From NCBI GenBank assembly GCA_002387735.1, contig DGKJ01000120.1:1-56219 (forward strand): a stretch of DNA of 56,219 nt, in the 5' to 3' direction. Under the pieces are notes generated by a model. That model worked only from the letters and a program-made list of their open reading frames with translations, had not been told where the DNA came from and did not search any database. Of this stretch, positions 14,811 through 42,400 are shown piece by piece. Position 1 is the stretch's first letter, and every line of letters begins with the position of its first letter. A program made the position numbers and the translations under genes. Origin of the DNA: Bacteriovoracaceae bacterium UBA4573. Its GTDB lineage: Bacteria > Bdellovibrionota > UBA1018 > UBA923.

Positions 14811-15926
14811 ATGAATAAGGTTTTTTGGTGCACAAGTTGTCTTAATATGTCGACGAGACCGCGGATTACATTTGACGAAAAAGGCAGGTGTAATGCGTGT
14901 CAGTGGTCGGAAAAAAAGAAAAGCTTCGATTGGTCGATGAGACAAGCCACCTTAGAAAAGCTTTTGGACAAGTATCGAAGAGATGATGGAGAGTTCGATG
15001 TTTTGGTGCCTGTAAGTGGTGGCAAAGACGGTTCATATGTCGCTCACAATTTAAAGACAAAATATGGAATGAACCCGCTTGCTTTAACCATTACTCCCCC
15101 GCTCTCTCTAGAAGTCGGAGATCAAAATCTTAAAAACTTCATACAGTCCGGCTATAATCACATTCAAATTAACCTTCATCCAGAGGTCACTCGATTAATC
15201 AGCCGTCACGGTTTCATAGAGTTTGGTTTTCCGTATTATGGTTGGGCAATTGGAGTTCAATCTGCTCCTGTAATGTTTGCGCATAAAATAGGAATTGGTC
15301 TAATTTTTTACGGAGAAGATGGTGAAGTAGAGTACGGCGGATCCACTCAGACCGCAGAAACACCGACTTATGACGTTAGTTATATGAAGAAAGTCTACCT
15401 TGAGGGAGGCCACGAAAAGGTTCTGGAGCTACTACCTAAAAGTCTTCAGAATCAGTTAACTTTTTGGCATTTTCCAACAGACGAAGATTTGCGGAGAAAT
15501 GAAGTAAAAATTGCGCATTGGTCATATTTTGAAAACTGGGACCCTTATCGCAACTACCTTGTGGCGAAAGAGTTTTGTGGACTTAAGGAAAGTGAAATGA
15601 CCAACACTGGGACTTTTACGAACTTTTCCCAAACCGACCAGGCGTTGTACTCGCTACACGCTTACCTCATGTATTTAAAATTCGGCTTTGGTCGGGCTAC
15701 GCAAGATGCGGGCATCGAAATTCGTAGAGGCGCAATGCGTCGTGATCAAGGAGTAAACCTTGTTCGAATTTACGACAACGCATTTCCGGAAGAACATATT
15801 GATGCGTATCTCGATTATTATAAAATGAGCAGGGAGGAATTTGATAGCGTCTTAGATCGTTGGGCAAATAAAGAACTCTTCGAAAAAAAGAATGGGCGTT
15901 GGATGCCGAACTTTCGGATCAGCTAG
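14811..15926 (+). CDS. N-acetyl sugar amidotransferase (WbuX/WbpG/PseA family)
   Basis: N-terminal CxxC...CxxC (CTSC, CNAC), PP-loop SGGKDG, YGEDGE.EYGG, YLKFGFGRA..DA..EIR.G. Confidence 0.9.
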   Translation: MNKVFWCTSCLNMSTRPRITFDEKGRCNACQWSEKKKSFDWSMRQATLEKLLDKYRRDDGEFDVLVPVSGGKDGSYVAHNLKTKYGMNPLALTITPPLSLEVGDQNLKNFIQSGYNHIQINLHPEVTRLISRHGFIEFGFPYYGWAIGVQSAPVMFAHKIGIGLIFYGEDGEVEYGGSTQTAETPTYDVSYMKKVYLEGGHEKVLELLPKSLQNQLTFWHFPTDEDLRRNEVKIAHWSYFENWDPYRNYLVAKEFCGLKESEMTNTGTFTNFSQTDQALYSLHAYLMYLKFGFGRATQDAGIEIRRGAMRRDQGVNLVRIYDNAFPEEHIDAYLDYYKMSREEFDSVLDRWANKELFEKKNGRWMPNFRIS

Positions 15927-15930
15927 GAAT

Positions 15931-16539
15931 ATGATTCATATTTTGGACTATGGAATGGGAAATATCGCTTCGCTGAAAAACGCGTTGGAGTTTCTTGGAG
16001 CTGACGTTCGCATAACGTCCAAATGGACCGAGTTGAAAAAGAGTGAAAAACTTATAATTCCAGGCGTGGGTTCATTTACCACTGCAATGGACCGCCTCGG
16101 TCAGCTCGATCTAATCGGAGCGATTAAAGAACTACCCGAAAGAAAAGCCCCTGTTCTCGGTATTTGTCTTGGCATGCAAATTTTGGCTGATCGAGGATAT
16201 GAAGGCGGAAATACACCTGGTTTAGGATTGGTACCGGGGGAGGTCGTACCCTTCGTTCCCGAGAGTTCGGAATTAATTCCGAATGTGGGATTTAACGAAG
16301 TTGAAATACTGCCTACCGCTGGGGATTTATTTAAAGAAATAGCGAGCGGTTCCTATTTTTATTTCACGCATAGTTATTTTTTTCGCACTGATTCTCAAGG
16401 GTCTGTTACTGGTTTGGCTCAAAACGGGACCAAATTTACAGCGAGTGTCCAGTGTGAATATGCATTCGGCGTTCAGTTTCATCCAGAAATTAGTCAAAAA
16501 AAAGGTTTGCAGCTTCTCAGGAATTTTATTGAGCTATGA
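15931..16539 (+). CDS. HisH-like glutamine amidotransferase subunit (WbuY-like)
   Basis: ILDYGMGN..S, PGVGSF, GICLGMQ, YF.HSY, GVQFHPE; sits between the amidotransferase and HisF-like genes. Confidence 0.9.
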   Translation: MIHILDYGMGNIASLKNALEFLGADVRITSKWTELKKSEKLIIPGVGSFTTAMDRLGQLDLIGAIKELPERKAPVLGICLGMQILADRGYEGGNTPGLGLVPGEVVPFVPESSELIPNVGFNEVEILPTAGDLFKEIASGSYFYFTHSYFFRTDSQGSVTGLAQNGTKFTASVQCEYAFGVQFHPEISQKKGLQLLRNFIEL

Positions 16540-17318
16540 GAAAAAAAAGACTGATTTTCGCCTTACTACACCAGGACGGATATTTTGTTTTAAGTCGAAA
16601 CTTTCGACTGCAAAAGGTAGGCGACGTAAACTGGTTGATTGATAACTACAATCTGGCAGAGGTTGTGAAATCGATCGATGAATTAGCTATTATTTCGGTT
16701 TCGAGAAACAGAATTATTCACGAGACCTATTTGAGAGATTGCGAAATTATCAGCAAAGTTTGTTTTACTCCCAAAATTTTTGGGGGAGGTATCGCTTCTG
16801 TAGAAGATGCAAAAAGATTATTTGATTCAGGCGCGGACAAAATTATTGTGAACTCTTTGTGTTTTTCAAACTCGGCTTTGGTGTCAGATCTAGTGAGGCT
16901 TTTCGGAAGCCAGGCGGTTGTTGGTTGCTTAGACGTTTTAAAAGACAAAGTAAGCGGCGAATACAAGGTTTTTGTTAAGAATGGATCGGAAGTGTCAACA
17001 CTCAATCTGCGAGAATGCGTCGCTAAGCTGGATGAATTGGGAGTTGGAGAAATTATGATTCAGTCAATATCCCAGGACGGAACCGGCTTTGGGCTTGATT
17101 TGGCGGTGGTTGACGCTGTGGTTGCCGAAAAAAACACAGGCTCTCGACCTATCGTACTCGCCGGTGGAGCAGGGTATCACGCCCACTTAGCAGAAGCGCT
17201 AGCCCATCCAAATGTAAACGCAGTACTAACTGCAAATATCTTAAATTTTATTGGCGACTCACTATCTACAACTCGCAGGGACCTAATTGACTCCGGGATT
17301 GGCCTAGCCAAGTTCTGA
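16536..17318 (+). CDS. HisF-like TIM-barrel subunit (WbuZ/AglZ-like)
   Basis: SRNFRLQKVG, DEL, FGGGI.S.EDA..LF.SGADKI..NS, GEI..QSI.QDGTG.G.D; ATGA overlap with the HisH-like gene. Confidence 0.85.
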   Translation: MRKKRLIFALLHQDGYFVLSRNFRLQKVGDVNWLIDNYNLAEVVKSIDELAIISVSRNRIIHETYLRDCEIISKVCFTPKIFGGGIASVEDAKRLFDSGADKIIVNSLCFSNSALVSDLVRLFGSQAVVGCLDVLKDKVSGEYKVFVKNGSEVSTLNLRECVAKLDELGVGEIMIQSISQDGTGFGLDLAVVDAVVAEKNTGSRPIVLAGGAGYHAHLAEALAHPNVNAVLTANILNFIGDSLSTTRRDLIDSGIGLAKF

Positions 17319-17400
17319 TTTTTGTGACTTTAGAAGTGCGATCTGTTAACTATCCAGTATTGAATTTGATCTTTTAAACAGCAAACGGAGCTAAAGAAAA

Positions 17401-18969
17401 ATGAATTCGATAGAGATGAAGCGAAGTGAATCCAACGTCATGATGCAGTCTAAAAAATTAGCTGACGATTTCGCTTTTAGAGCAGCTCGCTATAATAACC
17501 GGGCCTCCACATTATTTCCTTTTTCACTTAGAGAAGAGAACGACCTTCAAGTGTCTTTTTTTGATTACTGGAGATTGAAGAACCGTCTAAACGGCGTGAT
17601 GTTGAATCTCCGAATTTACGATAATCATGGACAATTGTTGAAGCGGCACACGAAGCGAGTAGATGCGCAGCATAACAATATATCTGTTCGATCGATACTT
17701 GGGGCAGAGAGAGCGGCATCTATCGATGGAATGGTCGAAGTGGAGTTTCTAAGTTTTGAAAATATGCTCTACCCATATCCGGCTGTAGTTGCATTCTATT
17801 TCGGAAAAGATGGTGGCCGAGGTACGGGATTTAGTGCGGTACATTCTGCGGGTCGAGTGCTTAACCCCAATGAGGCCTTCGTTAAACGCAAGTCGATCGG
17901 TACGAATTGGAGTTGCCGCTTCAATGATTCTAATCATCAGCCTTTTTTTCATTTGTACACTGGCCCCGGAGGGCTCGATGAGCCATTGACTACCGAAGTT
18001 AGTATTTGGTCTCCGAAGAACGAAAAACTTTTGGAAAAAAAGTATGTTACAAAAATACAGTATCCATTTTCGTCTCAGATTTGTTTTTTGGATGAAATCT
18101 TTGGAGCCGACCTCCATGGTGTTCCTGAAAATTCATATGCGAGAGTAAAGTTTTATTCTACAAACACCTACCCTCTTATGATCGTCGGAAACTATCGAAA
18201 GAGTGATGGACTTTATGAGGTTTCTCATTCGTTTGTTCAAAACGAAGTAGAAGATTATCTTGAATCCCCGCCAAACGAAGGTTCAGAGATCGTGCCAACA
18301 TTTATTTCACTTCTCCAGCCAGAAGAGTTGGAGTTAGAGTTAATGGTTTTTCCTACGGACATTGAACACTCCACTCAAGCTCGAATTCGTGCGATGTCAG
18401 AGTGGAATGGGGTCCTTAAAAGCACTAACGAAGAAATTAGAATTGAAAGTGGCGCCAACTCCGGTAAGGCGTTTGTTCGAAAGTTAGAACCAAACCAAAG
18501 GATGGTTCTAATCGAGGCGTTGTCAGGCCCGAAGATTCCTGCCCGAATCAATACCAGCTTTCGTTACCGAGTGCGTGGGTCTAAATCGGGTTATTCGACG
18601 GATATTGCAAGTGGAGCCAAGGCATGGATCTATCCATCGAAAACAAATTACTGGGGCCATGGAATTATTTCGGAAGATGTTGAAACGGTACTTCTTGTTA
18701 GAAACGCTTCTCATAATAAATCCATTTCGGCACCCGTCAAAGGCACTCTTAGAATAAGTATGGATAATTCCGAGAGTGGACCCATAGATGTGACGATAAA
18801 TGCAGAAAGTGGACAGGCATTATATCTTTCAAAGCTTTGGCCAGAGATGGCCAAAGATAGTAAATTAAGAACGCTTTCGTGGTGGTTCGTAGCAGAAAAA
18901 TCTTTTTTAGATATTTGTTGGGTTTCATTTTCAAAAGACGGAAGAATTGCTGGAGAGCACTCATTTTGA
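17401..18969 (+). CDS. Hypothetical protein, 522 aa, about four predicted beta-rich repeat domains; paralog of 26738-27631 and 27628-28500
   Basis: Long ORF inside an operon. Shares segments with the two minus-strand hypotheticals (see findings). No signal peptide or TM segment evident. Confidence 0.8.
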   Translation: MNSIEMKRSESNVMMQSKKLADDFAFRAARYNNRASTLFPFSLREENDLQVSFFDYWRLKNRLNGVMLNLRIYDNHGQLLKRHTKRVDAQHNNISVRSILGAERAASIDGMVEVEFLSFENMLYPYPAVVAFYFGKDGGRGTGFSAVHSAGRVLNPNEAFVKRKSIGTNWSCRFNDSNHQPFFHLYTGPGGLDEPLTTEVSIWSPKNEKLLEKKYVTKIQYPFSSQICFLDEIFGADLHGVPENSYARVKFYSTNTYPLMIVGNYRKSDGLYEVSHSFVQNEVEDYLESPPNEGSEIVPTFISLLQPEELELELMVFPTDIEHSTQARIRAMSEWNGVLKSTNEEIRIESGANSGKAFVRKLEPNQRMVLIEALSGPKIPARINTSFRYRVRGSKSGYSTDIASGAKAWIYPSKTNYWGHGIISEDVETVLLVRNASHNKSISAPVKGTLRISMDNSESGPIDVTINAESGQALYLSKLWPEMAKDSKLRTLSWWFVAEKSFLDICWVSFSKDGRIAGEHSF

Positions 18970-18987
18970 ATCGGGAGGAGTTTTCCG

Positions 18988-21144
18988 ATGAAGGATAAAC
19001 TTAAAGTATACTTGGGGGATTTAACTCATGACACAGTGGTTTTGGTGTCAGATACAATTCCTATCAATATTGGATTTGTAGCAACTTATTTAAAAAAGTC
19101 TCTTGGTGACGACGTAGAAATCACTTTGTTTAAATATCCAAATGAAATGGTTCAGGCATTGCGCGAAAATCCGGCCGACGTTGTAGCGCTCAGCAACTAT
19201 TCATGGAACAGTCATTTGTCTGAAAGGATGTCGGCTTTTGCGCACGAACAAAATCCGGCATCGATAACAGTTCAGGGCGGTACCAATCTCCCACACAGAT
19301 CAGAATTGCAAAAAGAGTTTCTTCTGACGAGGCCGGCCACCGATTTTTTTATAGAGCTGGAAGGAGAAGTAGCCCTTACCAATTTAGTAAGTAAGATCTT
19401 AGATTTTAGAAAAACCTTCGACGGAATGGGGAATAGGCTATTTCGTGATGCCCTCTTTTCAAAGGCGATTGATGGGTGCCTTTTTATACAACCCGAAACT
19501 CGCTCATCGGAGCAGCCCGTCTTTATAAAGGGTGAAAAACCAGCGCGACTTACCTGCCTTGATGAAATTCCATCCCCGTATTTAACAGGTATTTTAGATA
19601 AATTTTTCGATGGTAAACTGACGCCTTTCATTGAAACCAACCGAGGTTGTCCATTTACCTGTTCTTTTTGTCATACCGGTAGTTCCTATTTTAATAAAAT
19701 AAATCATTTTTCGGCAGAGCGAGTTCGCGAAGAACTCGCATACATTGCGCCGAGAGTGTCAAAGCTTGGAATCAGAAACTTACATGTTGCGGATACAAAT
19801 TTCGGAATGTACGCGAGAGATAAAGAAATTTGTGAAATGCTGCTTGAGTCGCAGAAACGTTATCTGTGGCCCACTCACATAATGGCGACAACAGGAAAAA
19901 ATAAAAAAGAACAGGTAATTGATATCACCCAAATGATGGGCACTTCTTTTTCTGTGAATATGTCAGTCCAGTCTATGGATGCCGAAGTTTTAAGAAACAT
20001 TAATCGTTCTAATATTAAATTAGAACACTATACCGAGATCACTCGCGTATTAAATGAACGCGGACGCGCGACCAAGGGCGAAGTGATTATTGGTTTGCCA
20101 GGGGAAAGTAAACAAACTTTCGTCGATGGACTGCGCAAAATTCTGGAAGCCGGTGTTAGCCAGGTTTCAATGTATTCTTTAATGCTTTTGCACGGGACCT
20201 CTTTTCAGGAACCCGAATACAGGGCGAAATACAAAATCGTTGGTAAATATCGAATTGTACCTTTGAATTTTGGAGAATACGCTGGAAAAAAGGTGTTTGA
20301 TACTGAGGAAGTCGGAGTTGAAACGCGTGATATGCCATTTGACGACTACCTTTGGATTCGTGGTTTGTGTCTACTCGTCGAAACGTTGCATAACAGCAGG
20401 CCTTATCATGAGTTTTTTAAGTACGCGGATTCGATAGGAATAAGTACTTTTGATTTCATATTGATGGTTTACAACCGTTTGGCTGAGGCACCACCAGCCA
20501 TAAAAGAGTTGATGAAGGAATTTATTGCCGAAACCCGAACTGAACTTTGGGATTCAGAAGAAGAACTGATTTCTTTTTACAGAAATGAAGCTAACTACCA
20601 AAAATTACTCGCAGGCGAATTAGGTGGGAATTTAATATTCAAGTATAAATCGTTAAGCTTGGTTAAGTGTAAAGGCGATTGGATAAAATTTCTTTCTAGT
20701 CTTTGTCTAGAATGGGGCCTTGCATCGGCACCGAATAAAGCAGTGGTAGATAAAGAAGTTGCTGCAATCTCGCAGTTTGTGGATAAACGACTTGATGGAC
20801 TTCTTCAGCCCGAAGCAAATACCTCAAATATTGAGATGGTGACCCATTATGATCTACTGGCCTGGAGAGCAAGCTCGGGCAAATCACTTTCTACTTTTTA
20901 TCGCGACGAGCCCTTTTCTTTCGAGTTTAAGTATTCGGAGGAACAGCTTGAGGCAAGAACAGATCAATTTAAAAGATATGGCACGTCAGTTAGTGCACTA
21001 AGTAAAATAGTTACTCGAGTAAGTAATGTGGAAAGTTTATTTAGAAAAGTTGCTTATGGTGCCGGTACAGATCTTTCTAAGCCAGATAGCACAGACTCAA
21101 AAATAGAGCAGGACTTATTTGTGCGATATTCAACTTCTGGGTAA
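18988..21144 (+). CDS. B12-binding-domain radical SAM protein (class B methylase-like), 718 aa
   Basis: N-terminal cobalamin-binding pattern (P..IGF.A.YL, DVVALSNYSWN, GG), ETNRGCPFTCSFC (CxxxCxxC), DTNFG, SVQS, IIGLPGES. Confidence 0.9.
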   Translation: MKDKLKVYLGDLTHDTVVLVSDTIPINIGFVATYLKKSLGDDVEITLFKYPNEMVQALRENPADVVALSNYSWNSHLSERMSAFAHEQNPASITVQGGTNLPHRSELQKEFLLTRPATDFFIELEGEVALTNLVSKILDFRKTFDGMGNRLFRDALFSKAIDGCLFIQPETRSSEQPVFIKGEKPARLTCLDEIPSPYLTGILDKFFDGKLTPFIETNRGCPFTCSFCHTGSSYFNKINHFSAERVREELAYIAPRVSKLGIRNLHVADTNFGMYARDKEICEMLLESQKRYLWPTHIMATTGKNKKEQVIDITQMMGTSFSVNMSVQSMDAEVLRNINRSNIKLEHYTEITRVLNERGRATKGEVIIGLPGESKQTFVDGLRKILEAGVSQVSMYSLMLLHGTSFQEPEYRAKYKIVGKYRIVPLNFGEYAGKKVFDTEEVGVETRDMPFDDYLWIRGLCLLVETLHNSRPYHEFFKYADSIGISTFDFILMVYNRLAEAPPAIKELMKEFIAETRTELWDSEEELISFYRNEANYQKLLAGELGGNLIFKYKSLSLVKCKGDWIKFLSSLCLEWGLASAPNKAVVDKEVAAISQFVDKRLDGLLQPEANTSNIEMVTHYDLLAWRASSGKSLSTFYRDEPFSFEFKYSEEQLEARTDQFKRYGTSVSALSKIVTRVSNVESLFRKVAYGAGTDLSKPDSTDSKIEQDLFVRYSTSG

Positions 21145-21162
21145 TTGATTGGTGTTCGTTTA

Positions 21163-22209: not shown

Positions 22210-22212
22210 AAC

Positions 22213-30614: not shown

Positions 30615-30630
30615 GAGCGGGGCCGAAGCA

Positions 30631-35009: not shown

Positions 35010-36842
35010 GTGCGAGAGATTCAGGGGCTGGAGTCAGTGACCAAAGAGCAAAAGTTTACGTTTTTTAAAAAGGCCCACTTCGAATTTCTAATACGCGGGC
35101 AAAAGAAAAGGGTTCTGGGGCTTTTTTTTGTAAGCGTGATTTTTGCCCTATCAGAAAGTTCGATAGTTGCTTCGGTTTATCCTTTAATTGGCTCTTTAGT
35201 ACAAACTCCAAGCGAGTCATTTCTATCAATTGATGCGCTAAATAAACTAGGGTTGCATACCTTTCTTGACCGAGCACAAGGTTCTATAATTGTTATTTGC
35301 GGTTTTATAGTTTTTGCGCAACTTTTAAAGTTCATATTTGGAGTTCTGCAGGAGGCCATTAATGCGAGAATAACTGCGGATATAATGTCCAATACTAAAA
35401 ACCTCGTATTCGAGAAACTTAGTGATTTGGAATATTCGGAACTGATAAGCAGTAAATCGGGGGAACTCTCCTATGTGGGCACTGTAGCTCCATCGAAGGC
35501 TGCCATCGCTGTATCAAACTACCTGCAGCTTGGCGTGGAATCTCTGAAGGCTGCCTTTATTCTCGCCACAATATTGGTGATCGATTTTAAAGTGACTCTC
35601 GCAATGGGAGCGCTTGGATTCTGTTTTGCAGTTTTGAATCAATATGTGACCAAAAAGGTTTCTTATATTACCGGTGCCGAGCGGCGAATTCACTCAGGAA
35701 ACTCTTTGGTTTATTTTCAGGAGTTTCTAAATGGAATCAAACAAATTTCTGTTTTCGGTGTGCAGAAATTTTGGGGAAGTTTATTTAATTCCTCCAATGA
35801 AAAGTTCGGTAACTATTACGTAAAAGATCAAAAGTGGCTTGCAATATCCAATCGGGCTTTCGAGTGTGTAAGTATTTCAGTTTGTTGCATTGCTTTAGGA
35901 GTTTTGGCCTATTTTGAACCAGCATTAATACAGCAGAAACTACCGCTAGTTTCGGTGTTTCTTTTTGCGATAATTCGATTTGTACCATCTGTAGCTTCAA
36001 TGGGGCGATTGAAAATGCAGATCGCCGGAGCGCGTTCAGACGTAGAGCGTCTGTATGATTTTTGTACCAAAGACGTAGCATCTATAAAAGACGGTACAAA
36101 AGACAACGTTAAATTCGAAAGAGGCATACGTTTTGAAAATCTAAAATTTCAGTATGAAAATGGAACTACTGTTTTTTCAAAATTAAATCTTGAAATAAAA
36201 AAAAATCAAACAATTGCTTTTGTCGGTCCTTCCGGAGCTGGCAAAACGACAATAGTAAATATGCTCGTCAAATTGATAAGACCCAGCAGTGGAAGAATAT
36301 TGATTGATGACGTCGACCTATCTAGTATTAAAATGAATTCCTGGCGAAAGCATATTGGGTTGGTGAGTCAGGATTCCTTTAGTTCCCATGGTACCATTTT
36401 AGAAAATATCGTCTTCGGTAGATCGGAATATTCTGTGGCAGAAATCGAAGCCGCCGCTCGCATGGCCAATGCCCACGAGTTCATTGAGCAACTGCCAGAA
36501 AAATATCAAACAATCGTAGGAGAACGCGGGCTCAAGCTATCAGGGGGGCAAGGGCAACGAATAGCAATCGCAAGAGCGTTATTGGCAAATCCCCCGATCA
36601 TCATATTTGATGAAGCGACGAGCGCTCTCGACAATCATTCGGAAAGCCTTATTCATCAAACAATAAAAAATCTTTCGGGAAAAAAAACGATTATCATTAT
36701 CGCACATCGTTTAGCTACAATTGAGCACGCTGACGTTATTCATGTAATTCGCGATCAAGAAATAGTAGAGTCCGGAAATTTTTCTGATTTATTGGTTAAG
36801 AAGGGTGATTTTTTCTCGCTTTATAGCAAACAAGGTCTCTAA
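35010..36842 (+). CDS. ABC half-transporter (TMD + ATPase), MsbA/PglK-like lipid-linked glycan flippase
   Basis: N-terminal TM helices, Walker A GPSGAGKTT, Q-loop, LSGGQ.QR.AIARA, Walker B IIFDEATS, IAHR. Confidence 0.9.
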   Translation: MREIQGLESVTKEQKFTFFKKAHFEFLIRGQKKRVLGLFFVSVIFALSESSIVASVYPLIGSLVQTPSESFLSIDALNKLGLHTFLDRAQGSIIVICGFIVFAQLLKFIFGVLQEAINARITADIMSNTKNLVFEKLSDLEYSELISSKSGELSYVGTVAPSKAAIAVSNYLQLGVESLKAAFILATILVIDFKVTLAMGALGFCFAVLNQYVTKKVSYITGAERRIHSGNSLVYFQEFLNGIKQISVFGVQKFWGSLFNSSNEKFGNYYVKDQKWLAISNRAFECVSISVCCIALGVLAYFEPALIQQKLPLVSVFLFAIIRFVPSVASMGRLKMQIAGARSDVERLYDFCTKDVASIKDGTKDNVKFERGIRFENLKFQYENGTTVFSKLNLEIKKNQTIAFVGPSGAGKTTIVNMLVKLIRPSSGRILIDDVDLSSIKMNSWRKHIGLVSQDSFSSHGTILENIVFGRSEYSVAEIEAAARMANAHEFIEQLPEKYQTIVGERGLKLSGGQGQRIAIARALLANPPIIIFDEATSALDNHSESLIHQTIKNLSGKKTIIIIAHRLATIEHADVIHVIRDQEIVESGNFSDLLVKKGDFFSLYSKQGL

Positions 36843-36844: not shown

Positions 36845-38425
36845 CTAGATTATAAATTCTTTTAAAGAGGCAGGTTCATTTACCCCAAAAAATTGTTCTG
36901 AAAAAGCACGCGCTCGAAATCTTTGAGCATTTAATTGTTCGAGCGGAAGATTTTTAATCTCTTCTAAAATGGGAACTATGGAGCGACTTTTATCGTAGAT
37001 CCATCTAAGGTCGGTGAGTCGATATAAAGGATCAAAGCAGATGTCATTCTCGCGCGAAACGTATATTACGGGTAAACCAATAGCGATCGCTTCGATTGCA
37101 GATGCACTAGCCGAATAAATTGCGATATCGGCTCTTTCTAGGTCTTCTCGTAGGCTTTTGCATTCCGAGAGTGCGATATTTTTTGGTAATGCCTTGGTTG
37201 TTACATTTAGATGGCTAATAATGGCGGACCATTTGTGCGCGGGATGCTTTCGAACTATGACTTTCCAGTCGTTGTTGTTTTCTAAATTGGCGATAATGTT
37301 TTTGGCAAAATCGGAAGTTTCAATCAAGTCGAGCAAAATCAGGATTGTGTTTTTAATGGTCTCATTTTTCGATTCAGTTTTGTAACTGCTACTTTGTCGA
37401 AGCGCGAATCCGACGGAAAGTTTCAAGCGGTGTTCCTGGCTAAATTCTCGAATAACACGGACAGCTTCTTGTCCAGCCGTGACTACGCGGTCCGGAATTG
37501 GAGCGTATAGCGATTCATCTGTTCCTAAAAAAAGGTTCATCGAACCTGGCGATACAATCGTATGCTGGTACCCAATGATCTGAGTTTTTGGACTGAATGT
37601 TCGTAGCGCTAAAACACACATTCGTTCCCATGGATTATTTTCCCAAGTGTAAACAAAGTGTGAAAGTTTTAGAGTTTTACTTATATTCTTGATCGCATAA
37701 TAGTGGCAAAGGGAGTGAATAGAGGTAGAACTTAAGAGGTCGAAAAAATATTGATATCTAAAAACGGACGTGACGTCTTTCTCGGCGAAGCGTATAGGAC
37801 CTTTTGGTGATGTAAATAGTCCCAAAATTATTCGGCCCCAAACACGAATAAGGTCGTAGGGTTCGAGAAAAAAATGTAGCGGTAAAATCCGATCTGAAGC
37901 ACGACAATGTGCGAGGGCTTTATTAAAATCGCAAAGAGGGTCGACTATCGTTAGAACTTTATGATTACCTGGGGGATTTGAAGCAAGTTCAGCCAAATTT
38001 CCAAAGTAAGGATCTTTGGAGTCACCAGAATCTTTAGGGTTTTGCAGAAGAAAACTTTTGATCAGATAAAAGGGAGTCTCGCGATCAGAACACAGACTCT
38101 GAAAGAGTTCAGCCAAGGCTCGTCGCGAAATAAAAGCATTTTTAGCAATTCTAAGGCTGACTCGTATAGAATGGCTCACAGCTTTTGAAAAAATTTGCAG
38201 TTTGGTTAAAAATGCAAGTTCTGCCGGATTTGAATCGTGCCAGATCGAGTAGCAGTGTTTTACGGAGAGGGAGGATGTTTTATTTTTTGAAGGTATCCAG
38301 GTAGCCCACCACGCGAGCGAGCAATTCAAGCTATTAAGTCTAGCAATTAGACTGCAATATTCTTGTACAAAAGTCCCGTTGGTATGGTCCGAATCGCTCT
38401 TCAACGTGGATTTCGATGGTTCCAC
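36845..38425 (-). CDS. Uncharacterised surface-carbohydrate protein with GT-B-like C-terminus
   Basis: WENNPWE, IIGYQH, VRKHP, and ADIAIYSAS.SAIEAIAIGLPVI typical of GT-B C-terminal lobes. GTG 38425 preferred (track start 38452). Confidence 0.6.
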   Translation of the reverse strand: MEPSKSTLKSDSDHTNGTFVQEYCSLIARLNSLNCSLAWWATWIPSKNKTSSLSVKHCYSIWHDSNPAELAFLTKLQIFSKAVSHSIRVSLRIAKNAFISRRALAELFQSLCSDRETPFYLIKSFLLQNPKDSGDSKDPYFGNLAELASNPPGNHKVLTIVDPLCDFNKALAHCRASDRILPLHFFLEPYDLIRVWGRIILGLFTSPKGPIRFAEKDVTSVFRYQYFFDLLSSTSIHSLCHYYAIKNISKTLKLSHFVYTWENNPWERMCVLALRTFSPKTQIIGYQHTIVSPGSMNLFLGTDESLYAPIPDRVVTAGQEAVRVIREFSQEHRLKLSVGFALRQSSSYKTESKNETIKNTILILLDLIETSDFAKNIIANLENNNDWKVIVRKHPAHKWSAIISHLNVTTKALPKNIALSECKSLREDLERADIAIYSASASAIEAIAIGLPVIYVSRENDICFDPLYRLTDLRWIYDKSRSIVPILEEIKNLPLEQLNAQRFRARAFSEQFFGVNEPASLKEFII

Positions 38426-39111
38426 TCGGTCAGCACCTTTTCCGCAAGCCAAAAGTCAAATTCATCGTGGATATCTATCGTAGTTCTAAAATCCTCTGTA
38501 GGAATAATTTCCACTACGCTCCCCAATCGTTTGCCTTCTCGAACAAGCCAAGCACGTGTAGCTGAAGCAACGCCTTGGTCCTCGCGGTAGGTAACTTTAT
38601 CTCCTCGTTCTTGTCGTGAGCTATAAACCGCTTCTGTAAGACGAACGTATCCCTCATTGGTTTTTTTCCAAAAGTGTTTGTGAGTTTTGTACCCTGAAAA
38701 GGCTGTGTGAACGGCAGGATTCTTTTTTAAATGATTCACGCATGCCGCAATCATTTCGGGGGTTCGAAATACATCAGTGGGTTGAAGGTAAACTACGATA
38801 TCGAATTTGGCTCCGATCATGTCTTCATAGGTTGTTAACGCGTGCGTGATAACAGGGTCTGGGGTAGCCGAATCAGTCGCGAGTTCTGGAGGTCGTCGAA
38901 AAGGTACTACCGCGCCCGCCTTCATGGATATTTCAGCAATTTCATCATCGTCTGTGGTTACAAGCACTTCGTCGCATACGCCAGATTCCTTAGCGTGATC
39001 AATGCTATGCACAATGAGTGGTTTTCCAGCTAATTTCCTGACATTTTTTCGCGGCAGTCCCTTAGAGCCACCGCGAGCCAGGATTATGGCGATTGTTTTT
39101 AAGTTATCCAT
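38401..39111 (-). CDS. Second acylneuraminate/ulosonate cytidylyltransferase
   Basis: ILARGGSKGLPRKN, VTTDDDEI, RPPELATD, LQPT..FR, DI....DF..AE. Confidence 0.9.
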   Translation of the reverse strand: MDNLKTIAIILARGGSKGLPRKNVRKLAGKPLIVHSIDHAKESGVCDEVLVTTDDDEIAEISMKAGAVVPFRRPPELATDSATPDPVITHALTTYEDMIGAKFDIVVYLQPTDVFRTPEMIAACVNHLKKNPAVHTAFSGYKTHKHFWKKTNEGYVRLTEAVYSSRQERGDKVTYREDQGVASATRAWLVREGKRLGSVVEIIPTEDFRTTIDIHDEFDFWLAEKVLTEWNHRNPR

Positions 39112-39141
39112 GCCTATTCCTACCTTAAAGAGCCTATTCTT

Positions 39142-40152
39142 TTAAATGTTGTAGTATCCTCTGTACCAATGAATGAATCGGCTTATGCCTTCTTCTAATG
39201 GAACTCGGGGCGAGTAACCCAGTTCGAGTTTCGATTCGGAAATATCCGCCTCCGTAACTTCGAGATCCCCGGGTTGGAGTGGTTTTAATAGCTTTATGGC
39301 TTTTTTTCCGACGCGCTCTTCGATCTGCTGTATATATTTCAAAAGCTCGACAGGTTTGTTGCCGCCAATATTATAGATTTTAAAAGCAGCGCTACTAGAA
39401 GCCGGATCGGCTACGGTCCTGTCCCAGTCTGGGTTTGGAGCTGGGGGCGGTGTTTCAATGACCTTTAGTATCGAATCAACTACGTCGTCGATATAAGTGA
39501 AATCTCTACGGTGGCGGCCCTCGTTAAACACTTCGATCGGTTCTCCCGCTAGGATATTTTTAGTAAATGTGAAGAAAGACATGTCTGGTCTACCCCATGG
39601 ACCGTAGACAGTGAAAAATCGAAGACCAGTAGAGGGAATTCCAAAAAGGTGACTATAGTTATGAGCCATTAGCTCATTCGAGCGCTTAGTTGCGGCATAT
39701 AGTGAAATCGGGTGACTCGCATGATCATGAATTGAGAACGGAAGTTTTGAGTTAAGCCCGTAGACCGAACTAGTAGAAGCATATATTAGGTGCTTAACTG
39801 GATGGGTTCGGCAGGCCTCTAAGATATTTAAAAAGCCTACGATATTAGACTGAATATACGAGTGGGGGTGAGAGATCGAATATCTAACCCCGGGTTGCGC
39901 AGCTAAATGGACGACGATATCAGGACGCTCTGTTTTGAAAATATCCAACACGGCGGCTGAATCCGAAATGTCAACGATCAAAACCTGAAGTCGTTTGCGT
40001 TCGCCCAGGCTAGCCAAACGAGCCTTCTTGAGCGTCGGATCGTAATATTGGCTCAGATTGTCGATCCCAACAATGCTTAGATCTTTTTCGAGAAGAGCTT
40101 TGGCAACCGAAAAGCCAACAAATCCTGCGACTCCGGTGACGAGAACTTTCAT
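39142..40152 (-). CDS. NAD-dependent epimerase, UDP-glucuronate 4-epimerase (Cap1J/WbgU-like)
   Basis: VTGVAGFVG, YYDPTLK.AR, HLAAQ.GVRYS, ASTSSVYG, SLYAATK, LRFFTVYGPWGRPDM, RDFTYIDD, G..RF..WY. Confidence 0.92.
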   Translation of the reverse strand: MKVLVTGVAGFVGFSVAKALLEKDLSIVGIDNLSQYYDPTLKKARLASLGERKRLQVLIVDISDSAAVLDIFKTERPDIVVHLAAQPGVRYSISHPHSYIQSNIVGFLNILEACRTHPVKHLIYASTSSVYGLNSKLPFSIHDHASHPISLYAATKRSNELMAHNYSHLFGIPSTGLRFFTVYGPWGRPDMSFFTFTKNILAGEPIEVFNEGRHRRDFTYIDDVVDSILKVIETPPPAPNPDWDRTVADPASSSAAFKIYNIGGNKPVELLKYIQQIEERVGKKAIKLLKPLQPGDLEVTEADISESKLELGYSPRVPLEEGISRFIHWYRGYYNI

Positions 40153-40216
40153 TCGGCATATTTACGCTATTTTGATGGACATTCAAAATTCATTTTTAAT
40201 ATGAATACATATATTT

Positions 40217-42400
40217 ATGAACAAAGACGTTAAATTTGCCCTTATTGGAAATGGCCGCGTTGCTTCTCGTCATATCGAAGCGCTTACTAAGAGAATCAGT
40301 GGTGGGCAATTGGTCGCCGTTTGTGATTCCAACCCCTCCCGCTTGGAAGACAAGCGATCCTTTGGTGATCGTGTCGAAGTCTTCAATTCCAGTGCGGACC
40401 TTTATGGTTGGGGCAAATTCGATGTTGCGGCGATTGCTACTCCCAGTGGTGATCATTACGAGCATGCGAAAGAGGCTATTTTAGCTGGAAAGCATGTCGT
40501 AGTTGAAAAACCCGTCGCGCTACGCATTGAACATGCGAATGAGCTAATTTTACTGGCTGAGAGAAACAACGTAAAAGCGTGGGTTATTCACCAAAACAGG
40601 TACAATCCAGCCATTTTAAAAACGAAAGAAGCGATCGAGCGAGGGCGATTAGGTACAAAGGTGCTTGCAACAGTGCGGGTGAGATGGTGTCGAAACGCCG
40701 AGTATTATACTCAAGATAATTGGCATGGGCGTTGGGCTTCGGATGGCGGAGTTATATCACAACAGGCGATTCACCACTTAGATGCGTTGCGTTGGCTTTT
40801 CGGGGATGTAGAAAGCGTCGAAGCTGTTTGTCGAACTCGGCTAGCTCCAATGGAGTGTGACGATTTAACTATAGCGACGATGAGTTTCAAAAATGGTGCG
40901 TTGGGAATTGTGGAAGCGACGACCGCCACTCGTCCGAGAGATCTAGAAGCGTCTTTGTCGTTGTTGGGCGAACAGGGAACGATAGTGCTAGGTGGAATCG
41001 CCATGAACACCATTCAGACGTGGGAGTTTACTGCCCCTGGTGATGGAGATTCAGATGTCCCCCAACGATATTCTCAGGTAATTCCCAGTGCCTATGGTTT
41101 AGGCCACGATGTTCTTTATCAAAAGGTGGTGGATTCAATTGTTGATGGAGCTCCAATTGAAGTTTCTTTAGACGAGGGAAAGAAAACATTAGAAATTGTG
41201 CACGCACTTTATGCAAGCAACGAACTGGGACGGCGAGTAAAACTAGATGAGGGCCTTAGTTCTGCAAAACTGGGAGTTCGAACTTTAGGGAAAAATGAAC
41301 CTGGAAAAGCCCACAAAGAACTTCAATTAGTTCAGAAAAATATCTCAAATCAACTTCCGGAATTTTCTAAGAATATTGTTAATTTCGCTGGAATTATAGG
41401 GGAATCTCCGTCTCTTTTTGCGAAAAGTCCCTTAATTTGGAATTCGGTATTTGAAAAATTAAGCTTCCAAGCTTCTTACGCTTCGTTTGACGTGCCTAAA
41501 TCGGAAAACTTAGCCGCATTAGTAGACACGCTGCGAAATTCTTCGTTTTATTTGGGTGGGAGTGTCACGATGCCATACAAAATTGGCATAATGAAATATC
41601 TTGATGAAGTCGATCCTACTGCGCGTGCAATTGGTGCTGTTAACACTATTGTACGAACTAAAAACGGAAAATTAGTAGGGTATAATACGGACGGGATAGG
41701 TGGAGTCGAGTCGATTAAAAAGGGAGGCGTAGAGCTCGCAAATGCTAGAACGCTATTAATTGGAGCCGGTGGAGCTGCTCGATCGCTCGCATTCTGTATC
41801 GCGAAAGCCTCTCGTTCGGGAAAACTTTGGATTACCAATCGGACAGAAGAAAAAGCATTAACTTTGGTAAAAGACTTAAAACGAGAATTTAATAATGTGG
41901 ATTTTATCCCATTCGAAGAAATTGCAGAGATATTACCGCAATTGCAATTGCTGGTGAATGCCTCCACCGTGGGTCAAAGTGGCCTTCAAAAAAATGCTAA
42001 AGGCGACTTTGTAAATCTGGGACCTTTCTCCCCTCTTTCTCGTGTGGAACCCCCTAGCTTGATGGTGCAGGGCAGTGTTTCAAATCCTGAGATTGAACGC
42101 GAACTTCTTTCCAGCTCGTTGGATTCGATTATGAAGAATTCAGAAGAATCACTGAAACGGTGTTTATTGCTAAATCGGCAAGCAATTGTATTCGATGCAG
42201 TATATTCACCACTAGAGACTGTATTTTTGGCGCACTCAAGGCAGACAGGTCATAAGACCATTAATGGAAAAATGATGAATATTTTTCAGGCTGCTGACGC
42301 CATGTTTAATAAGGTTTTCCATGAGTACTTGTCTAGTCGAGGGTTGTGGACCGAGACTACCTACAAAAAAATTGTCGATCAGATGCAGCTCGTCTGGTGA
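40217..42400 (+). CDS. Fusion: Gfo/Idh/MocA sugar-nucleotide dehydrogenase (WlbA/WbpB-like) plus shikimate dehydrogenase (AroE)-like domain
   Basis: aa 1-~353: IGNGRVA, TPSGDH, VVEKP, QNRYNP, WHG.W..DGG....QAIH. aa ~390-727: KSP, VTMPYK, IGAVNT, GYNTD, IGAGGAAR, NRT, FDAVY.P, G..M...QA. Confidence 0.88.
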   Translation: MNKDVKFALIGNGRVASRHIEALTKRISGGQLVAVCDSNPSRLEDKRSFGDRVEVFNSSADLYGWGKFDVAAIATPSGDHYEHAKEAILAGKHVVVEKPVALRIEHANELILLAERNNVKAWVIHQNRYNPAILKTKEAIERGRLGTKVLATVRVRWCRNAEYYTQDNWHGRWASDGGVISQQAIHHLDALRWLFGDVESVEAVCRTRLAPMECDDLTIATMSFKNGALGIVEATTATRPRDLEASLSLLGEQGTIVLGGIAMNTIQTWEFTAPGDGDSDVPQRYSQVIPSAYGLGHDVLYQKVVDSIVDGAPIEVSLDEGKKTLEIVHALYASNELGRRVKLDEGLSSAKLGVRTLGKNEPGKAHKELQLVQKNISNQLPEFSKNIVNFAGIIGESPSLFAKSPLIWNSVFEKLSFQASYASFDVPKSENLAALVDTLRNSSFYLGGSVTMPYKIGIMKYLDEVDPTARAIGAVNTIVRTKNGKLVGYNTDGIGGVESIKKGGVELANARTLLIGAGGAARSLAFCIAKASRSGKLWITNRTEEKALTLVKDLKREFNNVDFIPFEEIAEILPQLQLLVNASTVGQSGLQKNAKGDFVNLGPFSPLSRVEPPSLMVQGSVSNPEIERELLSSSLDSIMKNSEESLKRCLLLNRQAIVFDAVYSPLETVFLAHSRQTGHKTINGKMMNIFQAADAMFNKVFHEYLSSRGLWTETTYKKIVDQMQLVW

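Follow-up and report, generated by a model that had tools for sequence, protein, structure and literature searches.

A precedent for the system considered here is the ElaABC trio, in which ElaA, a member of the Gfo family, oxidizes and ElaC reduces CMP-Leg5,7Ac2, and ElaB is the cytidylyltransferase (PMC13656337). In this study, we analysed a stretch of 56,219 nucleotides of Bacteriovoracaceae bacterium UBA4573 (contig DGKJ01000120.1; hereafter the window), which probably holds a low-GC surface-glycan island (43.0% versus 48.1% for the genome) with two interleaved sugar-acid modules. Module A would be an ordinary, heavily tailored legionaminic-acid-type pathway that depends on NeuB, and module B a horizontally acquired cassette around a DAHP-synthase-like enzyme. 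Judged from its genes, the most likely role of the cassette is to make an acidic surface sugar of a candidate new kind and to activate it with CMP; no literature on this cassette was found.

Results

All genes named in the initial annotation are intact open reading frames at the coordinates assigned to them. The run at 14811-24470, with intergenic gaps of -35 to +82 nt, is consistent with one operon; a promoter and terminator scan gave signals at chance level. As had been noticed before, there are only one strong NeuB (32480-33592) and two stand-alone cytidylyltransferases (34223-34939 and 38401-39111), and no match to the AroB, AroD, AroK, AroA or AroC families was obtained among the open reading frames scanned (those of at least 100 amino acids at 10-45 kb and the main ones of both flanks).

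A core member of the cassette is the KPL-type DAHP-synthase-like gene (22213-23109, forward strand; PF00793, 185 bits), predicted to encode a PEP:aldose condensing enzyme. Its best PDB matches are the type I-beta DAH7PS structures 1VS1/1ZCO (217 bits), with KDO8PS at 77 bits, and it exceeds the TIGR01361 cut-off (285 versus 268 bits). It carries AGPN in place of AGPC and KPLSFPY in place of KPR(T/S)SPY, that is, the metal Cys is replaced by Asn and KPR by KPL. Although both changes are present in this enzyme, which had been described as mutated, they are not private to it but invariant in 15 aligned homologues with 64-76% identity to the window protein. The PEP ligands and the remaining metal ligands (K82, R140, K161, R162, E190, R191, H229, E255 and D266) are likewise invariant in the homologue alignment. 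The KPL clade is monophyletic in the tree (support 100/100) and splits into Cys-keeping and Asn subclades; relatives with an aromatic pathway have an enzyme of the KPR type. AF2 models precisely the clade-specific loops (residues 81-95 and 195-206) unreliably, which leaves the substrate pocket unreadable.

The genome to which the window belongs is 94% complete, and PF00793 is represented in it only by KdsA and the synthase at 22213-23109. No chorismate synthase, DHQ synthase, shikimate kinase or class II DAHPS was detected in this genome, and chorismate synthase is missing from 14 of the 21 genomes of the order, the present one counted. The KPL enzyme occurs in 0 of 40 relatives. Given that the shikimate genes are absent and that these relatives lack the KPL enzyme, the DAHP-synthase-like gene and the AroE-like one can be regarded neither as housekeeping nor as aromatic-pathway genes, in line with the initial annotation. 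The housekeeping aroF and aroE that it had envisaged elsewhere do not exist in the assembly, which holds no other DAHP-synthase-like or AroE-like gene. The cassette copy found here is horizontally acquired.

The conservation of the cassette was surveyed in 34 loci with a synthase at least 50% identical to that of the window, one of which (L046) was later placed outside the clade by the tree. Within 8 kb, an AroE-like gene was found in 28 of these loci, a cytidylyltransferase in 24, a GT2 domain in 23 and the oxidoreductase in 22; the predicted co-occurrence of synthase, AroE-like gene, cytidylyltransferase and GT2 fusion is thus seen in other genomes. None of the oxidoreductase, GT2 or cytidylyltransferase partners accompanies true DAH7PS genes (42-50% identity); in a few of these loci, aroE lies 2-3 kb downstream. 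The roughly 34 KPL cassette loci stem from many phyla, and streamlined marine plankton commonly carry the cassette; compact cassettes occur in Methylomirabilota and Pelagibacteraceae, with minimal forms that have no precursor-supply gene. The Gfo gene is missing from about a third of the loci. Since Thalassobaculum carries an SDR in its place, Azospirillum shows no partners other than GT2 and the cytidylyltransferase, and the Nisaea synthase has none of the cassette partners, the Gfo/AroE pair is not universally obligatory. Nearly all loci adjoin flippases, glycosyltransferases, sulfotransferases and NulO genes, with NeuB within 8 kb in 5 of the 34 and most lacking NeuB, LegB and LegC nearby. 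No hydrolase or phosphatase that could account for a free aldose is conserved with the cassette. The separate, non-aromatic unit put forward in the initial annotation is supported, but the amidotransferase triad, the repeat protein and the B12 radical SAM enzyme, all counted as parts of it, lie beside none of the 34 loci.

All five cassette parts are present in the window, in two blocks (22213-24470 and 38401-42400). The synthase gene overlaps by 4 nt with a core gene (23106-24470, forward) for a GT2 domain (residues 1 to ~225) joined to a CTP_transf_3-like domain of low conservation (~245-454). This fusion of ~454 amino acids is present in 17 loci, with 54-68% identity across phyla in the GT2 half and only 24-36% in the C-terminal half. 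It carries S-G-H, the GH being invariant, presumably at the usual GT2 DXD position, as placed by the general pattern of GT2 motifs. The cassette cytidylyltransferase (38401-39111, reverse; PF02348, 87.5 bits) is of the NeuA/PseF type and scores 87 bits to NeuA structures versus 33 to KdsB. In all 18 loci compared, it is more similar to the cassette cytidylyltransferase than the 34223 paralogue is (median 46% versus 31%), and it is presumed to be the CMP-ulosonate synthetase of the new sugar. Two cytidylyltransferase-type domains for a single sugar count against our preferred explanation.

The remaining core gene (40217-42400, forward) fuses a WlbA-type Gfo/Idh/MocA oxidoreductase (residues 1 to ~345), a half whose core membership was overlooked in the initial annotation, to an AroE-like dehydrogenase (~385-727). 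The N-terminal half matches 3Q2K/3Q2I, which we take to be WlbA, over the full length (E 8e-72, 36% identity). WlbA acts on UDP-GlcNAcA, and with an identity of only 36% the substrate of the cassette oxidoreductase may differ. The C-terminal half matches AroE 1NVT and has kept K, N, D, Y and Q, the catalytic K/N/D being invariant. Full-length Gfo-AroE fusions were found in 17 proteins elsewhere (41-51% identity), and two were seen within compact cassettes.

Between the 38401 cytidylyltransferase and the Gfo-AroE gene lies a UDP-hexuronate 4-epimerase-like SDR (39142-40152, reverse), which had also escaped notice and is probably a cassette gene for precursor supply. Its best PDB match is 5U4Q (404 bits); 6ZL6 (173 bits) and 6KV9 MoeE5 (119 bits) come next and are, as we assume, UDP-GlcA 4-epimerases; the database label of 6ZL6 reads only 'epimerase domain-containing protein'. 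All 9 other cassette genomes have orthologues with 45-55% identity, versus 10 of 40 cassette-less relatives (p = 4.5e-5), a co-occurrence confounded by phylogeny, as the two groups belong to different lineages. All 10 cassette genomes examined carry a UDP-sugar 6-dehydrogenase, but UDP-sugar dehydrogenases are common, with 11 of 14 controls also having one. A 4-epimerase-like SDR near the cassette (within ~13 kb) was found in only ~4 loci. The UDP-glucuronate-4-epimerase-like gene in the second block, together with the WlbA-like oxidoreductase, suggests an aldose derived from hexuronate and hence a nine-carbon dicarboxylic ulosonic acid, a tentative proposal to which we give somewhat less than an even chance.

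Module A comprises LegB (NDP-GlcNAc 4,6-dehydratase; 13630-14631, reverse; TIGR04180, 494 bits versus a cut-off of 475), the LegC aminotransferase (25557-26741, forward; TIGR04181, 511 versus 420) and, outside the range of the initial annotation, the hydrolysing 2-epimerase NeuC/LegG (44365-45579, forward; TIGR03568, 470 versus 236). The legionaminic core (30607-34939) holds a FabG/PtmA-like SDR (30607-31443), a PtmE-like CBS-nucleotidyltransferase (31428-32498), NeuB/LegI (32480-33592; 472 versus 400 bits), NeuD/LegH (33579-34226; 220 versus 161 bits) and a cytidylyltransferase (34223-34939, reverse) with 42-50% identity to those of Leg clusters. A formyltransferase and a deacetylase were also assigned to this module. 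The triad for acetamidino formation (14811-17318, forward) consists of WbuX (14811-15926; TIGR03573, 333 bits versus a cut-off of 203), HisH (15892-16539) and a WbuZ/HisF-like protein (16536-17318), and its homologues occur in a Leg cluster that has no DAHP-synthase-like gene. Homologues (52-58% identity) of the class B B12-binding radical SAM enzyme (18988-21144, forward), which is KedN5-like in its N-terminal half, were found in 3 of 3 inspected Leg clusters, all without the cassette. From these contexts, the radical SAM enzyme is a predicted legionaminic tailoring enzyme and the triad a predicted part of the same module. A short Gfo/Idh/MocA oxidoreductase (24479-25435, reverse), an ElaA-like candidate, gave no match to WlbA but shares 32-39% identity with one adjoining the cytidylyltransferase in Leg clusters L098 and L099. 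Together with the SDR (30607-31443) and cytidylyltransferase (34223-34939) of the legionaminic core, it looks like an ElaABC-type legionaminic trio that had gone unrecognized.

The all-beta repeat protein (17401-18969, forward; 308 representative homologues) is associated with NulO loci and not with the cassette. Its AF2 model (pLDDT 91.7) shows only beta structure, in an array that reads as about four beta-sandwich domains, and the PDB matches are only Ig/macroglobulin-like beta-sandwich arrays with a TM of 0.14 or lower. Both homologues inspected adjoin sulfotransferases and methyltransferases, and one of them a Leg-type cluster. The class I SAM methyltransferase with an N-terminal CxxC...CxxC (21145-22209, forward), listed earlier as a Zn-methyltransferase of the system, is at best an occasional accessory, with weak homologues (24-27%) near 4 of the 34 cassette loci and, in L097, next to the fusion. 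An RmlD-like reductase (28597-29562, reverse) and a PseB-type UDP-GlcNAc 4,6-dehydratase (29619-30614; TIGR03589, 501 bits versus a cut-off of 408) form a predicted third sugar route, to a 6-deoxy-hexosamine. An MsbA/PglK-type ABC exporter (35010-36842) and a TIGR04326-like GT-B protein (36845-38452, reverse), a candidate transferase whose gene overlaps the end of the 38401 cytidylyltransferase gene, showed no conservation with the cassette in other loci.

Discussion

In the pathway that we infer for the cassette, a ring hydroxyl of an acidic nucleotide sugar (a UDP-hexuronate from the SDR at 39142 is the most likely one) would be oxidized by the WlbA-like domain with NAD+ and re-reduced from the other face by the AroE-like domain to give an epimer, the fusion coupling both half-reactions. 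A free aldose would then be released, possibly with the GT2 domain as hydrolase, and condensed with PEP by the KPL synthase to a 3-deoxy-2-ulosonic acid. Such a condensation is suggested by the retained PEP ligands and the lost phosphate-binding Arg, and its independence of a metal by the Asn in place of Cys. If the aldose is a hexuronate, the product would be a nine-carbon dicarboxylic (nonulosaric) acid. As judged from its family, the 38401 enzyme would make the CMP-sugar that is then transferred to the surface glycan. The order given in the initial annotation, condensation followed by redox adjustment, is possible; the WlbA-like oxidoreductase fits redox on a nucleotide-linked acidic sugar, which is equally possible before condensation.

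That order is shared by an alternative with the same cassette and end use, which we regard as rather unlikely. PEP and a small aldose, phosphorylated or not, would yield a Kdo/DAH-like C7-C8 ulosonic acid that is CMP-activated before the Gfo/AroE pair epimerizes one hydroxyl, at C4 by analogy with C3 of quinate, and the GT2 fusion would be the transferase. ElaABC is a precedent for an oxidoreductase, a separate reductase and a cytidylyltransferase acting on a CMP-ulosonate; the AroE domain retains its carboxylate- and hydroxyl-binding residues, a pyranose 3-deoxy-ulosonate would mimic quinate, and minimal cassettes lack the precursor-supply gene. However, the oxidoreductase is nearer to WlbA than to generic family members, the NeuA-like rather than KdsB-like cytidylyltransferase favours a C9 sugar, the UDP-GlcA-4-epimerase-like SDR lies within the block, and a phosphorylated aldose needs a phosphatase, none of which is conserved with the cassette.

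Far less probable is that the cassette makes a substituent of legionaminic acid, such as an acyl or ether-linked keto-acid group, on a surface with Leg-type ulosonates only. In this window, Leg tailoring genes are interspersed with the cassette and probably transcribed together with it, and NeuB is near it in the five loci mentioned, but most cassette loci lack the Leg genes, and the cassette has a NeuA-type cytidylyltransferase other than the Leg one, which implies activation of a free ulosonate. A soluble or lipid-linked small molecule (osmolyte, cofactor or signal) instead of a glycan component is very improbable, although the conservation of the GT2 half is unusually high for a glycan transferase, GT-A enzymes glycosylating small acids exist (for example glucosyl-3-phosphoglycerate synthase) and the cassette is frequent among streamlined plankton; the glycan genes adjoining nearly all loci speak against it, as does CMP activation by PF02348 enzymes, which to our knowledge is known for glycan ulosonic acids only. 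That the DAHP-synthase-like and AroE-like genes are housekeeping aromatic enzymes placed in a glycan locus by chance is hardly tenable and already contradicted by the genome data. They are the only such genes of the assembly, and the synthase exceeds its family cut-off, but the shikimate genes are missing, chorismate synthase also in most relatives, the Arg binding the phosphate of erythrose 4-phosphate and the metal Cys are both substituted, the KPL clade is separate with a glycan context in nearly all loci, and relatives having the pathway rely on the KPR-type enzyme.

Our preferred reading, which we consider probable, is a legionaminic module beside an acquired cassette for a further acidic sugar. 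The replacement of Cys by Asn in the KPL synthase is as in the non-metallo KDO8P synthases, and the coupled oxidation and re-reduction proposed for the fusion would resemble the action of ElaA and ElaC on CMP-legionaminic acid.

Results

The window carries at positions 3179-56219 a single large surface-glycan island (ORF listing with Pfam/NCBIfam scans), which sits after ruvCAB, has lpxC as its first gene and shows a GC content of 43.0% compared with 48.1% for the genome. All genes listed in the initial annotation were recovered intact and in place by the same listing and scans: the WbuX/HisH/WbuZ amidotransferase triad, an unannotated 522-aa protein (17401-18969), a B12-binding radical SAM enzyme (18988-21144), a class I methyltransferase with CxxC...CxxC, a DAHP-synthase-like gene (22213-23109) with the motifs AGPNAVE and KPLSFPYR, a GT2/CTP_transf_3-like fusion, two stand-alone cytidylyltransferases (38401-39111 and 34223-34939), a single NeuB (32480-33592) and a Gfo/Idh/MocA-AroE fusion of 727 aa (40217-42400). 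The cassette has five parts in the window, distributed over two blocks: 22213-24470 with the synthase and the GT2 fusion, and 38401-42400 with a cytidylyltransferase, a short-chain dehydrogenase/reductase (SDR) and the Gfo-AroE fusion. A promoter and terminator scan gave a signal no better than chance.

The DAHP-synthase-like protein, termed KPL synthase for the KPL that replaces KPR, is a type I-beta DAH7P synthase by fold and lacks three defining features of that family. It scores 185.5 bits against PF00793 and 285 bits against TIGR01361 (cut-off 267.75), and its top PDB matches are 1VS1 and 1ZCO (217 bits). The metal-ligand Cys of GPC(S/A)VE is replaced by Asn in AGPNAVE, and this Asn is invariant throughout the window's subclade. 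KPR(T/S)SPY reads KPLSFPYR, with Leu in all 37 clade rows of the tree; the KPR(T/S) motif of type I-beta enzymes binds the phosphate of erythrose 4-phosphate. A shikimate-pathway setting is missing as well, with no match to PF01761, PF01202 or PF01264 in the 94%-complete genome. The protein is not a KdsA (TIGR01362 105.5 bits vs a cut-off of 314), a true KdsA being encoded on another contig (345 bits), and its match to the NeuB family model PF03102 is partial, with 23.6 bits over 97 residues.

Homology searches returned more than 120 homologues of the synthase with 56-79% identity. The 15 sequences that were aligned all share Asn53, Leu84 and the FPYR that follows, together with the remaining PEP/metal ligands K82, R140, K161, R162, E190, R191, H229, E255 and D266. 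In a maximum-likelihood tree of 92 sequences, with the KdsA of the window's genome as a distant reference, the KPL-type sequences form one clade (support 100/100) separate from the KPR-type enzymes. A small subclade from Nitrospiraceae, Acidobacteriota and Planctomycetia keeps the Cys, while the large Asn subclade comprises the window, Pelagibacteraceae, SAR86, SAR324, Prochlorococcus, Azospirillum, Thalassobaculum and others. KDO8P synthases show a parallel division into metallo and non-metallo enzymes. The AF2 prediction for the synthase was set aside as a guide to the substrate pocket, its clade-specific loops having a pLDDT below 60.

A housekeeping role of these genes in aromatic biosynthesis was rejected on account of the missing shikimate genes and of the absence of KPL-type enzymes from relatives. 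The only PF00793 proteins of the genome (94% complete, in 123 contigs) are the KPL synthase and the bona fide KdsA, the Gfo-AroE fusion is its only AroE-like sequence, and class II DAHP synthase, chorismate synthase, dehydroquinate synthase and shikimate kinase were not found in it. Chorismate synthase is absent in 14 of 21 genomes of the order, including that of the window and several that are 96-98% complete, and aromatic amino-acid auxotrophy appears to prevail in this lineage. None of 40 relatives encodes a KPL-type enzyme; their DAHP synthases, where present, are 38-50% identical, and the best ones group with the KPR-type enzymes in the tree. Given this absence from 40 relatives and the missing pathway, the cassette is horizontally acquired and cannot feed the shikimate pathway. 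The initial annotation had called for housekeeping aroF and aroE copies elsewhere in the genome; there are none, since the entire pathway is missing, a situation that argues more strongly for repurposing than the presence of a second copy.

Conservation of the cassette was assessed by retrieving 80 reference-genome loci, searching them with all window proteins and clustering their ORFs. The co-occurrence set consisted of the 34 loci with a synthase at least 50% identical to that of the window, one of which (L046) the tree subsequently placed outside the clade. An AroE-like gene lies within 8 kb of the synthase in 28 loci, a cytidylyltransferase in 24, the GT2 domain in 23 and the oxidoreductase in 22, several of the 34 loci ending early at contig ends. 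The expected recurrence of synthase, AroE-like gene, cytidylyltransferase and GT2 fusion was thus borne out. Around ordinary DAH7P synthases of the KPR type (42-50% identity), the oxidoreductase, GT2 and cytidylyltransferase partners are all missing, and a few of these loci carry an aroE gene 2-3 kb downstream. Compact operons were seen in two MAGs, from Methylomirabilota and from Pelagibacteraceae, one in the order cytidylyltransferase, Gfo/Idh/MocA oxidoreductase, synthase and AroE-like gene, the other with the GT2/cytidylyltransferase fusion in addition.

About one third of the loci are without the oxidoreductase. Seven loci of the Thalassobaculaceae/Azospirillum branch have no Gfo/Idh/MocA gene. 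In Thalassobaculum, an SDR lies directly upstream of the synthase in the place of the oxidoreductase, and a cytidylyltransferase is also present (Pfam scan); in Nisaea, none of the usual cassette partners was found within 10 kb. The cultured strains of this branch offer the easiest way in for experiments. Accessory genes for putative carbamoyltransferases (five loci), methyltransferases and sulfotransferases occur near cassettes, and the cassette sugar is therefore probably decorated. The putative carbamoyltransferase, a protein of about 600 aa, adjoins, or separates, the synthase and AroE-like genes in these five loci. Judged by eye it looks like the NodU/CmcH type, which would suggest O-carbamoylation of the cassette sugar.

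The amidotransferase triad, the 522-aa repeat-domain protein and the B12 radical SAM enzyme, which the initial annotation had counted as parts of the same system, have to be separated from it: WbuX, HisH, WbuZ, the 522-aa protein and the radical SAM enzyme are absent from all 34 cassette loci, and their own homologues occur in other contexts. Homologues of the radical SAM enzyme (52-58% identity) lie inside legionaminic-type clusters in all three inspected loci, none of which has a DAHP-synthase-like gene. These clusters carry LegB, LegC, NeuC, NeuB, NeuD and a PtmE-like transferase, and variably add a short oxidoreductase beside the cytidylyltransferase, a FabG-like SDR, a PIG-L deacetylase, a formyltransferase and HisH/WbuZ/WbuX. 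The window holds every gene of these clusters, including a PtmE-like CBS-NTP transferase, and its legionaminic (Leg) enzymes exceed the respective cut-offs (bits/cut-off: LegB 494/475, LegC 511/420, LegH/NeuD 220/161, LegG/NeuC 470/236, LegI/NeuB 472/400). On the evidence of these counts and of the homologue contexts, the triad, the 522-aa protein and the radical SAM enzyme belong to a tailored, NeuB-dependent legionaminic pathway that is interleaved with the cassette in the window.

The radical SAM family of about 710 aa, with 52-58% identity, extends over Omnitrophota, Elusimicrobiota, Delta- and Betaproteobacteria and SAR202 (comparison loci L098, L099 and L100). Our literature search found no description of a B12 radical SAM enzyme acting on nonulosonic acids; C-methylation of the sugar or of an N-acyl group is a possible role. 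No Pfam model covers the 522-aa protein, which has 308 representative homologues and invariant His, Arg and Trp residues. Its predicted fold is all-beta (pLDDT 91.7), which we read as approximately four putative beta-sandwich domains, and a fold search returned generic beta-sandwich arrays only and no enzyme fold. Both homologues examined (L101 and L102) lie beside sulfotransferases and methyltransferases, one of them also beside a Leg-type cluster. Two unannotated minus-strand genes, 26738-27631 and 27628-28506, gave no Pfam/NCBIfam match. A paralogy with the 522-aa protein was rejected: BLASTP showed none among the three proteins, and hhalign gave no support for the former and a weak result (40% probability) for the latter.

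A short Gfo/Idh/MocA gene (24479-25435), a FabG/PtmA-like SDR (30607-31443) and the cytidylyltransferase at 34223-34939 recur as a trio in the Leg clusters L098, L099 and L101. This candidate trio repeats the layout of ElaA/ElaC/ElaB, a comparison made at the level of gene layout and protein family. In Acinetobacter baumannii KL49, ElaABC is the system that epimerises C8 of CMP-Leg5,7Ac2 (PMC13656337). By analogy, the legionaminic acid of the organism may be an epimer such as 8-epi-Leg.

The cytidylyltransferase at 38401-39111 matches PF02348 with 87.5 bits from the first profile position and aligns with NeuA structures from residue 6; its sequence points to the CMP-ulosonate cytidylyltransferase family, with an N-terminal CTP-binding motif that appears intact from the profile coverage. 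In each of the 18 loci compared, it was closer than 34223 to the cytidylyltransferase of the cassette (median 46% vs 31%), and it is therefore assigned to the cassette, whereas 34223 is the better match to the cytidylyltransferases of Leg clusters. The cassette enzyme resembles NeuA (87 bits) more than KdsB (33 bits), which would favour a nine-carbon substrate. In the GT2 fusion, the cytidylyltransferase-like domain shows little conservation, and its match begins at profile position 18. The GT2 domain shows an unusually high identity of 54-68% across phyla and contains S-G-H, with GH invariant; judging by the motifs usual in GT2 enzymes, we presume that S-G-H stands where the DXD would be expected. 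This domain may be a dedicated transferase, or it may, by analogy, be a nucleotide-sugar hydrolase on a glycosyltransferase fold, as is PseG in the pseudaminic route.

The Gfo-AroE architecture of 727 aa was found in 17 other proteins (41-51% identity). Two of these fusions were inspected, and both lie in compact cassettes, with the synthase adjacent or one gene away and both cytidylyltransferase-type genes nearby. The recurrent fusion of two redox enzymes argues for a successive action of both domains on one substrate. Along its entire length, the oxidoreductase half aligns with 3Q2K and 3Q2I (36% identity by BLASTP, 341 residues, E 8e-72 to ~1e-77), which are labelled in the database only as 'oxidoreductase' and 'dehydrogenase' and which we take to be WlbA UDP-GlcNAcA 3-dehydrogenases; all cassette oxidoreductases are 24-36% identical to 3Q2K. 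Such homology suggests that this half probably binds a nucleotide-linked acidic sugar. An aminotransferase as the partner of WlbA is not conserved with the cassette. In the AroE half, the Lys of the TMPYK motif and the Asp of the NTD motif are invariant among 26 cassette AroE-like proteins, and the Asn, Tyr and Gln that hold the hydroxyls and the carboxylate of shikimate in AroE are also kept. The score against TIGR00507 is 170.6 bits (143.7 in the genome search) and hence below the cut-off of 200.2, and AKSP replaces the carboxylate-binding SxSP. Together, the two halves look like an oxidise-then-reduce epimerase acting on a ring hydroxyl two atoms from the carboxylate-bearing carbon.

Further genes of the island were noted. 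Directly downstream of the fusion, 42436-43449 encodes an unannotated 337-aa protein with GTARAGKTT, a motif resembling the PAPS-binding loop of sulfotransferases; in the Methylomirabilota locus, too, the cassette has sulfotransferase genes as neighbours. The region 28597-30614 holds a PseB-type inverting UDP-GlcNAc 4,6-dehydratase (501 bits, above cut-off) paired with an RmlD-like reductase and not accompanied by PseC, PseH, PseG or PseI, and is probably a third sugar route to a 6-deoxy-hexosamine and not to pseudaminic acid. On the minus strand, 36845-38452 encodes a TIGR04326-like protein with a PseG/GT-B-like C-terminus and overlaps the end of the 38401 cytidylyltransferase gene by 52 nt. 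The protein might serve as the transferase of one of the CMP-sugars and is not conserved with the cassette elsewhere.

Discussion

We rate the cassette as an uncharacterised and widespread form of CMP-ulosonic acid biosynthesis, and no description of it was found in full-text literature searches. In the route that we put forward, the Gfo/AroE pair would epimerise a UDP-hexuronate, the free uronate would be released, the KPL synthase would condense it with PEP to 3-deoxy-non-2-ulosaric acid, and the cytidylyltransferase would form the CMP-sugar. As a whole, this sequence of steps is tentative and its chances fall somewhat short of even. The main alternative retains the order of the initial annotation, with condensation before redox adjustment: a smaller aldose would be condensed first and activated, the CMP-sugar then being epimerised in the manner of ElaABC; we consider this order slightly less likely. 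The hydroxyl addressed by the redox pair would be C3 of a hexuronate in the former case or C4 of a 3-deoxy-ulosonate in the latter. A non-phosphorylated aldose would fit the synthase, because no phosphatase is conserved with the cassette in the ORF clustering of the loci and the phosphate-binding Arg is gone.

Several findings concern the supply of a UDP-hexuronate. The SDR at 39142-40152, between the cytidylyltransferase and the Gfo-AroE fusion, has 5U4Q as its top PDB match (404 bits), followed by 6ZL6 (173 bits) and MoeE5 (119 bits), the latter two being, as we assume, UDP-glucuronate 4-epimerases. Orthologues with 45-55% identity occur in nine of nine other cassette genomes, among them a 1.0-Mb SAR86 and a 1.3-Mb Pelagibacter genome, compared with 10 of 40 cassette-less relatives (Fisher p = 4.5e-5, a phylogenetically confounded comparison). 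A UDP-sugar 6-dehydrogenase is encoded in all 10 cassette genomes, this family being common. A joint reading goes further and appears doubtful when all its parts are taken together: the KPL clade would be a third, independently recruited lineage of ulosonic-acid synthases for glycans and would use free, epimerised hexuronic acid and PEP to make a nine-carbon dicarboxylic 3-deoxy-non-2-ulosaric acid, while the GT2 domain, its DXD apparently lost, would release the aldose as a UDP-uronate hydrolase. The calculated masses are 282.06 Da for the nonulosaric free acid C9H14O10 and ~587.10 Da for the CMP adduct.

CMP-ulosonic acids such as Kdo, sialic, legionaminic and pseudaminic acid have a central role at bacterial surfaces, in immune recognition and in the adsorption of phages. 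To our knowledge, only two synthase lineages, KdsA and NeuB, lead to CMP-activated ulosonic acids, and we know of no 3-deoxy-non-2-ulosaric sugar class in bacteria. The cassette would add a third lineage, recruited from the shikimate pathway, together with an undescribed sugar that, if the proposal is true, would decorate the cell surface in SAR11, SAR86, Prochlorococcus and many uncultured phyla. Carriers of the cassette include some of the most abundant marine bacteria as well as many uncultured phyla, and its product could therefore matter for phage-host specificity, marine dissolved organic matter and glycan analytics. Automatic annotation names such genes 'DAHP synthase' or 'shikimate dehydrogenase', and auxotrophic genomes can thereby be wrongly credited with the start of aromatic synthesis. 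The window adds a cassette from a genome without any shikimate pathway, which makes it a particularly clean natural control; it also adds a split cassette in which the Gfo-AroE fusion occurs together with an Asn-type synthase, and a UDP-glucuronate-4-epimerase-like gene within the cassette block.

Comparison with known systems

The KPL synthase shares the TIM-barrel family with the type I-beta DAH7P synthases in their unregulated core form (A. pernix 1VS1, P. furiosus 1ZCO, T. maritima 1RZM), as well as the Lys of KPx, the Arg of GARN, KR, ERG, the His of DPSH, the Glu of EVH and the Asp. The clade differs from them in KPL(T/S)FPYR instead of KPR(T/S), VxPHTHR instead of IRTFE, each with a 3-residue insertion, in FWxxW instead of GRR and, in the subclade of the window, in the exchange of the metal Cys for Asn; moreover, the KPL genes are always surrounded by glycan genes and never by aro genes. 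The AroE-like domain has the catalytic Lys/Asp and the Asn, Tyr and Gln in common with the AroE 1NVT/YdiB family, but that of the window has AxS in place of SxS, a 48-residue insertion and a genome without shikimate pathway around it. The 5-ketofructose reductase 7COK, a member of the same family, indicates that the family is able to reduce keto-sugars. WlbA/WbpB is homologous to the cassette oxidoreductase over its full length and works with WlbC/WlbB to make a 3-acetamido sugar; this usual aminotransferase/acetyltransferase pair is missing in the cassette, where an AroE-like reductase is fused or adjacent instead.

At the level of pathways, the Kdo route (KdsD, KdsA, KdsC, KdsB) uses the same condensation of PEP with an aldose by the same superfamily, followed by CMP activation, whereas the cassette has no isomerase or phosphatase, a NeuA-like instead of a KdsB-like cytidylyltransferase and an additional redox pair. 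ElaABC, in which a Gfo/Idh/MocA oxidase acts together with a cytidylyltransferase and a separate NAD(P)H reductase on an acidic nucleotide sugar, serves as a model for the Gfo-AroE pair, although the cassette reductase is of the AroE family and not a FabG-like SDR, the two redox parts are fused and the oxidoreductase is WlbA-like. The best functional analogue would be the logic of the nonulosonic acid pathways (NeuC/NeuB/NeuA and the Leg and Pse routes), in which a free, non-phosphorylated aldose is obtained from a nucleotide sugar, condensed with PEP and activated by a NeuA-type enzyme; in contrast to these, the cassette employs a synthase of the DAHPS/KDO8PS family in place of NeuB, has no NeuC/PseG-type hydrolase and involves an AroE-like enzyme.
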